Shown piece by piece: positions 11,897 through 19,535 of a DNA stretch of 19,535 bases. The DNA is taken from assembly GCA_029762535.1 (NCBI GenBank), contig JARVGK010000026.1, positions 1 through 19,535 on the forward strand, written 5' to 3'. The position numbers and the translations under genes were made by a program. The DNA comes from Thermoplasmatota archaeon (GTDB taxonomy: Archaea > Thermoplasmatota > Penumbrarchaeia > Penumbrarchaeales > Penumbrarchaeaceae). The notes under the pieces are model-generated. The model saw only the letters and a program-made list of their open reading frames with translations. It did not search any database and was not told where the DNA came from. Position 1 is the stretch's first letter. Every line of letters begins with the position of its first letter.

Positions 11897-12003
11897 GGCT
11901 ATAATCTAATTGTGTCGGGAAGCTCAATTGAATGCCGTAACATCAGGCTTCCCGGTCTTGGGAAAATCGAAATACGACATTGATACCATGTCGATTTTCC
12001 CGA

Positions 12004-12048
12004 CTTTTTCATCCCATATAGCTTGATGGATGCTAAGGGATGAAAAAG
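12004..12048. terminator. 12-bp perfect inverted repeat immediately 3' of tRNA-Thr (terminator-like hairpin with T-run)
   Basis: CTTTTTCATCCC (12004-12015) / GGGATGAAAAAG (12037-12048). Confidence 0.55.
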
Positions 12049-12122
12049 AGCCACCAGAGGGATTCGAACCCCCGACCTGCTGATTACAAGTCAGCCGCTC
12101 AACCGGGCTAAGCTATGGTGGC
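12049..12122 (-). tRNA. tRNA-Thr(UGU)
   Basis: Minus strand folds as a cloverleaf: GCCACCA acceptor, D arm, GCTGA-CT TGT AA-TCAGC anticodon arm, GGGGG-TTCGAAT-CCCTC T arm, TGGTGGC and U discriminator. No intron, no encoded CCA. Confidence 0.97.
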
Positions 12123-19072: not shown

Positions 19073-19136
19073 CCCAACGTTCAAATACGACCGCTTCATT
19101 TCGGAGCGATGCGATCCCCTGAAGGATCGAGAACGT

Positions 19137-19210
19137 GGGCTGGTAGATCAGCTCGGTAGATCGCCTGCTTCGCAAGCAGGAGGCCTCGGGTTCAAATCCC
19201 GACCAGTCCA
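19137..19210 (+). tRNA. tRNA-Ala(CGC)
   Basis: Cloverleaf: GGGCTGG/CCAGTCC acceptor with the G3:U70 alanine identity pair, CCTGC-TT CGC AA-GCAGG, TCGGG-TTCAAAT-CCCGA, A discriminator. No encoded CCA. Confidence 0.98.
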
Positions 19211-19232
19211 CTCTAATTTATCTATTATTCAC

Positions 19233-19253
19233 GGACTGGAGGGATTTGAACCC
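19233..19253 (-). repeat. Inverted degenerate copy of the tRNA-Ala 3' end
   Basis: GGACTGG-A-GGGATTTGAACCC versus the reverse complement of 19188-19209, GGACTGG-TC-GGGATTTGAACCC. Confidence 0.8.
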
Positions 19254-19325
19254 TTGGGTTCTTGGGAAGGTAGGCATCGGCCGAGTTCCCAAGATGTGGA
19301 AAATCCCAAAGGGATTTTTCATGCA

Positions 19326-19535
19326 TCAAATCCCGACCAGTCCACCATTCCCTTCTCATTGCTTAATCTTTTTTTCAGGGAATGATGAACTGGTCTCAGT
19401 CGTGAAACTGCGTTTCACTCCTCCCGACCAGTCCACCATTCCCTTCTCATTGCTTAATCTTTTTTTCAGGGAATGATGAACTGGTCTCAGTCGGGTGAGG
19501 CAAAGCCTCTCCCTCCTCCCGACCAGTCCACTATT
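19326..19535 (+). repeat. tRNA-Ala 3'-end repeat array: two identical 72-bp units (19331-19402, 19422-19493) and a third tRNA-end copy at 19517-19530; runs to the window edge
   Basis: TCCCGACCAGTCCA occurs at 19331, 19422 and 19517; the first copy extends to 19 bp of identity with the tRNA (19326-19344). Confidence 0.95.

Follow-up and report, generated by a model that had tools for sequence, protein, structure and literature searches.

The tRNA-Ala(CGC) gene of the Thermoplasmatota archaeon studied here is followed by a tandem array of short, gene-less units combining direct and inverted copies of the tRNA 3′ end, and this array is apparently one locus of a tRNA-linked fold-back cassette system that has not previously been described. 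The window, i.e., the whole stretch of 19,535 nucleotides that was analyzed, comprises the initial 19535 bases of a 43-kb contig (C21) in a draft genome of 2.96 Mb (G000), which is assembled in 102 contigs and 93% complete. In the tRNA gene itself, the G3.U70 pair is kept and the 5:68 pair is U:A. The array starts one base past the gene, at position 19212, and a repeat search placed the starts of tRNA-end copies at 19326, 19417/19422 and 19512/19517 (spacings of 134, 91, and 95). These copies are 20, 15, and 15 nt long, respectively, and two more occur past the window. The initial annotation had described two identical 72-bp units that begin with the tRNA end and recur with periods of 91 and 95 bp, which agrees with the 100% identical 72-nt copies found at 19331-19402 and 19422-19493. 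It had also remarked that the third copy diverges right behind the tRNA end as the gene does; copy 3 (19517-19531) is indeed followed by TATT, and the gene by TCT. A 14-mer of the tRNA-Ala(CGC) end occurs four times in the 2.96-Mb genome, always at this locus, compared with a chance expectation of about 0.02. Upstream of the gene, a promoter-like box was noticed at 19079-19089, about 50 nt before tRNA-Ala, with similar boxes preceding the same tRNA in relatives; it resembles T-arm sequence, which the modules hold in inverted form. The parts of the locus are as follows, in contig positions:

19137-19211, plus strand: tRNA-Ala(CGC) gene (ARAGORN; Rfam tRNA model, 67.2 bits at 19137-19210).
19212-19232, plus strand: AT-rich spacer, the loop of the first fold-back (read directly; no run of five or more T in the T-run table).
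19233-19253, plus strand: acceptor 3′ strand and T-arm as inverted complement, opening the A-type module (inverted repeat and fold; similar copies on contigs C58 and C102).
19261-19293, plus strand: A-type inner hairpin that varies between loci (RNA fold; comparison with C58 and C102).
19298-19320, plus strand: conserved A-type inner hairpin with a stem of 9-10 pairs and a triloop (fold; paralog comparison).
19326-19345, plus strand: direct copy 1, 20 nt, which begins at T-loop position 55, extends one base beyond the discriminator and closes the A-type module.
19346-19386, plus strand: left part of unit 1, with an 8-bp stem extension, a loop of 23 nt that includes seven consecutive T, and the returning arm (fold).
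19387-19402, plus strand: inverted complement of the acceptor 3′ strand in unit 1, then conserved TCAGTCG (repeats, fold, alignment with relative G002).
19402-19418, plus strand: variable inner hairpin of unit 1, 7 pairs with a triloop, unique in the genome.
19422-19436, plus strand: direct copy 2, 15 nt, from T-loop position 60.
19437-19493, plus strand: left part and inverted acceptor copy of unit 2, identical to unit 1 (100% over 72 nt).
19494-19513, plus strand: inner hairpin of unit 2, different from that of unit 1 and equal to the hairpin of the units past the gap bar one base.
19517-19531, plus strand: direct copy 3, 15 nt.
19532-19535, plus strand: first bases of the next unit type, followed by a gap of 99 N.
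19635-19792, past the window: two identical 80-bp units of similar design (TRF score 316).
19793 to about 19950, past the window: degenerate second A-type module.

The units share one plan: behind an AT-rich spacer comes the acceptor 3′ strand as an inverted complement, after which one to three inner hairpins follow, and the tRNA end, repeated directly over 15 or 20 nt, concludes the unit. With both an inverted and a direct copy, a unit can close on itself or pair with the preceding copy. The first module (19212-19345) ends in the 20-nt copy, and its conserved hairpin recurs with compensatory changes on contig C102. The inverted copy of unit 1 features two G-to-A differences, just upstream of it and in its first bases, and the stem extension of this unit is also found behind tRNA-Ala(CGC) in the relatives G006 and G002. 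The 91- and 95-bp units differ solely in the inner hairpin, which has been swapped outright in the interval from TCAGTCG to a short linker that precedes the copy. A mosaic structure is evident in unit 2, whose left half corresponds to that of unit 1 and whose right half to that of the units past the gap. The window does not stop at a contig end, which the initial annotation had considered as a source of artefact, but at a scaffold gap of 99 N inside a longer array (contig positions 19536-19634), so that the number of units in the window is a lower bound. Extension of the sequence, which had been proposed as a check, carries the array to about contig position 19950 and to at least five units, adding the two 80-bp units and the degenerate A-type module. 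The right halves of the 80-bp units correspond to unit 2 bar one base, and their tRNA-end copy holds one substitution.

Searches within the array for further tRNA genes or pseudogenes, by ARAGORN with introns allowed and by the Rfam tRNA model, detected the tRNA-Ala gene alone, and the units contain no ORFs. No Rfam family was found for the array, as a scan with E up to 1 returned only the tRNA and sub-threshold, miRNA-like hairpin hits. A CRISPR array was rejected, because the supposed spacers are themselves duplicated (identical copies of 72 and 80 nt) and the repeats contain the tRNA end. Likewise, a C/D-box reading of the motif ATGATGA, which is made by the two G-to-A changes, was dismissed on direct reading, as no D box lies in register.

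Throughout the genome, 23 of 47 predicted tRNA genes (all isotypes) are followed within 900 bp by one or more copies of their own 3′ end. Two classes of left boundary exist among these copies, lying 19 nt or 14-15 nt before the discriminator end, which corresponds to T-loop position 55 or 59/60; on the right, the copies stop at the mature 3′ end, with CCA included where it is gene-encoded. Within 75 nt, 9 of 41 tRNA genes are accompanied by an inverted sequence that matches their own end at 9 or more of 11 bases without gaps, and reversed-sequence controls yielded no such match. Hairpins that do not derive from the tRNA recur at different tRNA loci. The paralogous tRNA-Ala loci show steps of array build-up: tRNA-Ala(TGC) carries a fold-back alone, and tRNA-Ala(GGC) a fold-back plus one A-type module, which is 96% identical to the CGC module over the 53 nt of the conserved hairpin and the tRNA-end copy. 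The 88-95-bp unit is confined within this genome to the tRNA-Ala(CGC) locus and is not a dispersed element; a genome-wide search had been suggested initially. Elsewhere in the window, a tRNA-Thr(UGU) gene (11990-12122, minus strand) has an 11-pair fold-back directly 3′ of the gene and no downstream tRNA-end copies, and looks like a minimal version of the flank design.

The acceptor pair 5:68 of tRNA-Ala(CGC) is U:A in G000 only and C:G in all 11 relatives, and the U:A state is carried by 6 of 6 direct copies (the gene included) as well as by 6 of 6 inverted copies. The presence of a lineage-specific substitution in all direct and inverted copies means that they evolve in concert with the tRNA. 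As the unit predates the split of the genera (see below), the copies must have been homogenized with the tRNA end or re-templated from it. Furthermore, the inverted copies have an A opposite U70, where the 5′ strand of the tRNA has G3; accordingly, they were copied from the 3′ strand and not from the 5′ end of the tRNA.

Modules of the same design follow tRNA-Ala(CGC) in all 11 relatives that were fetched, with varying module type and number, and clusters of tRNA-Ala ends spaced by 88-380 bp recur in the majority of the family's genomes and, outside the family, in a single genome from another family of the class. Metagenome scans with an array-specific 35-mer and with the lineage-specific tRNA gave no match; a contig scan with a 20-mer from the first module proved unspecific, matching ordinary tRNA T-arms in unrelated bacteria. 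In G002, which belongs to another genus, two contigs overlap by 141 nt and, when joined, yield tRNA-Ala(CGC) with two long modules behind it and, after these, a unit of 88 bp. The latter shares identical flanks and the same two C.A mismatches with those of the window and encloses an unrelated inner hairpin. Occurrence of an orthologous unit in the array of the same tRNA implies that the unit is old and vertically inherited, and its restriction to a single locus in G000 lets it behave as a resident structure rather than as a mobile element. Local tandem duplication consequently accounts for the two identical copies better than serial insertion does. Of the initial proposal of serial insertions with a target duplication of 14-19 bp, the repeats of 15 and 20 nt at fixed T-loop starts have held up, while the insertional origin of the tandem copies loses ground to tandem duplication owing to this orthology. 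Retention of the degenerate second A-type module behind the G002 unit was not significant (score of 41 vs. 27.5 ± 5.8 in shuffles, maximum 52).

The order of homologous modules differs even between two species of one genus, running from the tRNA through A to P in G011 and through P to A and A in G005. The stem extension, too, changes its place: it lies directly behind the tRNA in G006, past one module in G000 and past two in G002. Together with the mosaics, these orders are consistent with a gain, duplication and reshuffling of cassettes at the repeated tRNA-end segment, although loss may account for them as well as insertion. Stem extensions differ between loci yet stay complementary, with 192 Watson-Crick pairs vs. 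126 ± 11 for shuffled partners in a count that takes in some sites read on both strands, and the length of the fold-back loop is constant at 21-24 nt across loci.

Self-complementarity of the 72-mer, as reported initially, was reproduced: the stem spans 19 positions, two of them C.A mismatches on the plus strand, and none of 200 shuffles folds as well. The accompanying statement that both mismatches turn into G:U pairs on the minus strand was found to be correct as well. When the 72-mer is folded as single-stranded DNA, these two positions interrupt the stem of the plus strand (-11.2 kcal/mol, z -3.8), whereas all 19 pairs form without interruption on the minus strand (-15.0 kcal/mol, z -5.0). 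Units of the 88-95-bp type fold more stably as the minus strand in 6 of 6 cases, and in four of these the difference amounts to 7-15 kcal/mol (e.g., -42.6 vs. -30.0 and -52.9 vs. -38.3 kcal/mol), and every extra mismatch is a C.A on the plus strand. The first module prefers the plus strand; its closing stem of 7 + 9 pairs encloses a hairpin junction, and an RNA fold of 19232-19346 reaches -60.6 kcal/mol (z -7.2). No common preferred strand exists over the 34 modules of G000 (18 vs. 16; Wilcoxon p 0.52). Judging from predicted folds, one-strand (minus) folding of the 88-95-bp unit appears to be conserved in itself, which would fit a recombination site acting as folded single-stranded DNA and would fit an RNA equally well.

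These patterns might be explained at the DNA level by cassettes that are templated on the tRNA end and homogenized with it, that recombine at the repeated segment and whose single-strand folding is under selection, a reading to which we give about an even chance of being correct. The segment from the T-loop to the 3′ end would then be the site at which units are gained, lost, duplicated and reshuffled. Unequal recombination or slippage between direct copies, aided by the hairpins, could have generated the identical 72-nt pair and the 80-bp pair, while gene conversion would make the direct as well as the inverted copies match the living tRNA gene. The first module (19212-19345) gives the impression of having been inserted later, between an older flank and the tRNA. 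Several points speak against the DNA cassettes: the 88-95-bp unit is vertically inherited at a single locus, the 34 modules have no preferred strand in common, and presence and absence of modules between species is readable as loss as well as gain. A recombination mechanism, and an enzyme that carries it out, are what we infer from the anatomy, the fixed boundaries, the unit orthology, the concerted change and the strand asymmetry seen in these genomes. The initial idea of a cassette array with folded sites is accordingly sustained by the strand-asymmetric palindromes and by the differing module order within one genus, and lacks its counterpart in a linked integrase or transposase, as none is encoded among the neighboring genes.

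Several known systems resemble such cassettes in part. The integron attC site and the attP site of phage CTX act as folded single strands on which IntI or XerCD operate, with the folded site mimicking a duplex target. Imperfect palindromes with strand-specific folding may be a feature that the units share with them, and the cassette order is changeable in both. Unlike in integrons, the stems of the units stem from the sequence of the neighboring tRNA, and an integron cassette array was rejected, there being no IntI-type integrase or attI beside the array and no cassette ORFs. Derivatives of IS200/IS605 are similarly hairpin-based, have gene-less forms and hold a part complementary to their target; IS200/IS605 elements, however, make no direct repeat of 15-20 nt. 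A palindromic element of this descent was discarded, as neither a Y1 (HUH) transposase nor TnpB was matched in the 93% complete genome. Casposons produce target duplications of 14-15 bp at tRNA 3′ ends and are known to form tandem arrays, which parallels the duplication length and the target seen here, whereas the units are devoid of casposon-type terminal inverted repeats. A casposon or mini-casposon was excluded as a candidate since, by direct reading, the unit ends are not inverted repeats of each other and the sole Cas1 of G000 is CRISPR-linked; it is part of a 555-aa ORF (L048:7004-8671) and adjoins a CRISPR array whose 37-nt repeat recurs with a period of about 72-74 (contig C5:63770-66810; L048:9772-12807). 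Retro-copying primed by the tRNA 3′ end was also rejected, though two array copies read ...ACCA, because reverse transcriptase is absent from G000; it is missing in 18 of 24 family genomes. More tentatively than the DNA cassettes as such, we consider it possible that the arrays are undescribed protein-less elements, copied from and kept identical to the adjoining tRNA end. Their direct/inverted fold would serve as a site of recombination or processing, and a host factor that reads the T-arm or the folded strand would mobilize the arrays or maintain them.

The main alternative, though a somewhat unlikely one, is that the modules represent small structured RNAs with tRNA-like ends, cut by RNase P and tRNase Z from read-through or antisense transcripts, so that the DNA repeats would merely be their genes. 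The closing stem would thereby mimic the acceptor stem followed by the discriminator. The wobble pattern, which is strand-specific and conserved across genera, speaks for such RNAs, as does the closed multi-arm fold of the first module with the energy given above. Moreover, no run of five or more T separates tRNA-Ala(CGC) from the first module, and a run of seven T follows behind the tRNA-end copy of the module, an arrangement that is similar at tRNA-Ala(GGC). Precedent is offered by rrA, rrB, and rrF of E. coli, whose transcripts undergo processing beside the repeated 3′ end (PMC8144298). However, many other tRNA genes of G000 have a T-run directly behind the tRNA and behind each copy; co-transcription deduced from T-run positions was given up as inconsistent between loci. 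The preferred strand further varies by module type inside one array, and the Rfam hairpin hits stayed below threshold. Processing also needs no identity with the neighboring tRNA, yet this identity is maintained.

We judge it decidedly unlikely that the arrays are passive by-products of fragile tRNA ends, arising by hairpin-stimulated slippage, template switching and gene conversion, with neither machinery nor function. Such a process would produce identical tandem copies and mosaic units, its gene conversion would result in concerted evolution, and it agrees with the lack of any enzyme linked to the arrays. It hardly accounts for the same two T-loop boundaries in more than 20 unrelated tRNA genes, nor for the sharing between tRNA loci of hairpins that do not originate from the tRNA. 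Equally difficult to reconcile with it are the constant loop of 21-24 nt, the stem extensions that remain complementary and the two mismatches that are identical in two genera.

Integrated elements deserve a separate view. Tyrosine integrases that target tRNA genes typically generate direct repeats which run from the T-loop to the 3′ end, and the identity block of the arrays, from T-loop position 55 or 59/60 to the mature 3′ end, has this feature of att arrays. The copies could accordingly be attL/attR remnants of plasmids or proviruses which once integrated at this tRNA gene and later lost their cargo, a view that we regard as very improbable. Besides the repeats (Williams 2002, as cited in PMC9897764), it can draw on the partial integrase gene beside tRNA-Trp in G000. 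Opposed to it are the size of the units (80-134 bp, without coding remnant), the recurrence of the same architecture at about half of the tRNA genes and across the family, and the inverted copies and conserved hairpins, which deletion scars are not expected to hold; tRNA fragments left by integrated elements have kilobases of cargo between them (PMC9897764). The flanks, too, consist of housekeeping genes. Phosphoglycerate kinase, ribosomal protein S15 and surface proteins are encoded upstream of the array, and a 336-aa ORF, a KaiC-like ATPase, a DUF5591+PUA protein (archaeosine-synthase or ArcS-like), wHTH regulators and the GTPase NOG1 past it. The locus is thus chromosomal and neither a provirus nor an attR, which also disposes of the provirus attR that had been named initially as a possible refutation. 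Tandem att arrays, including those of non-autonomous elements mobilized in cis, have a T-loop-to-3′-end repeat, an intact tRNA and tandem stacking in common with the array. They differ from its short, gene-less units, and more than 20 tRNA targets of shared architecture would need a recombinase that reads a common T-arm or fold instead of a single specific site. As no integrase or cargo lies between or beside the repeats, an att array of a tyrosine integrase was rejected; the PF00589 hits, one complete gene far off and the partial one, are on other contigs. The only tyrosine recombinase conserved in the family is located on contig C25 (101143-101622).

Two further observations concern the sites named. 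The partial tyrosine-integrase ORF of G000 is located just behind tRNA-Trp at a contig end (C53:7817-8068, minus strand), and at the start of contig C102 two A-type modules with the 3′ end of tRNA-Trp stand in tandem (C102:409-633); the tRNA-Trp site may hold an ordinary integrated element beside the cassette system. The 336-aa ORF (contig C21:19955-20962, minus strand; L003:952-1962) converges on the array, its final codons overlapping the degenerate distal module, and has a wHTH-like N-terminus and a Cys/His-rich middle part. It was rejected as a partner protein of the array, as it is without a Pfam family and its single weak paralog is not near any tRNA gene.

That the tandem units are an artefact of assembly or scaffolding, as the gap inside the array and the draft state of 102 contigs could suggest, is scarcely conceivable, since three different assembled junctions (first module to unit, unit to unit, unit to next type) cannot be obtained with fewer than two copies of the 72-mer, relatives with independent assemblies show comparable arrays and gaps cluster at tRNA genes genome-wide, as real repeats would cause. 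Eight of the 13 scaffold gaps of G000 lie within 1 kb of a tRNA gene, compared with an expectation of about 0.4; they are found on contigs C5, C7, C21, C23, C33, C47 (two) and C69. Hence, tRNA-flanking arrays are the main cause of the unresolved assembly of this genome, and the contigs of many relatives stop at a tRNA as well.

Repeats linked to tRNA genes are said to have been known since Egan and Landy described the 178-bp repeats of E. coli tyrT in 1978. Among the literature searched, the tRNA-linked repeats of E. coli (tyrT, RtT, rrA/rrB/rrF) are the only described analogue that was found. The 3′ end of their unit equals the last 18-19 bp of the upstream tRNA or rRNA gene, and most of them are without known function (PMC8144298). 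Like the arrays described here, they are gene-less, lie directly downstream of a tRNA, contain a copy of its end, are often tandem and occur at many loci. No homology to the Rfam family RtT was detected in the array at E up to 1. In contrast to the E. coli repeats, the units of G000 are archaeal and hold an inverted complement of the tRNA end which enables self-closure. They further differ by two fixed copy lengths (15 and 20 nt), several module types and swappable hairpins, and by affecting about half of the tRNA genes.

Thus, a much richer version of tRNA-linked repeats flanks about half of the tRNA genes across an archaeal family. Its fixed T-loop boundaries, the inverted copy matched to the tRNA, the concerted evolution and the strand-specific folding are features that can be tested. 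In practical terms, the arrays break metagenome assemblies at tRNA genes and are mistakable for attachment sites of proviruses. Should the units prove to recombine in the form of folded single strands, or to be excised as tRNA-like RNAs, a new class of tRNA-associated elements would be added. If they are protein-less elements, they would correspond to the tRNA-linked repeats in an archaeal and more elaborate form, and their mechanism would be tractable. Knowledge of this system could bear on the evolution of tRNA gene ends and of integration sites, and perhaps on that of non-canonical tRNA introns.
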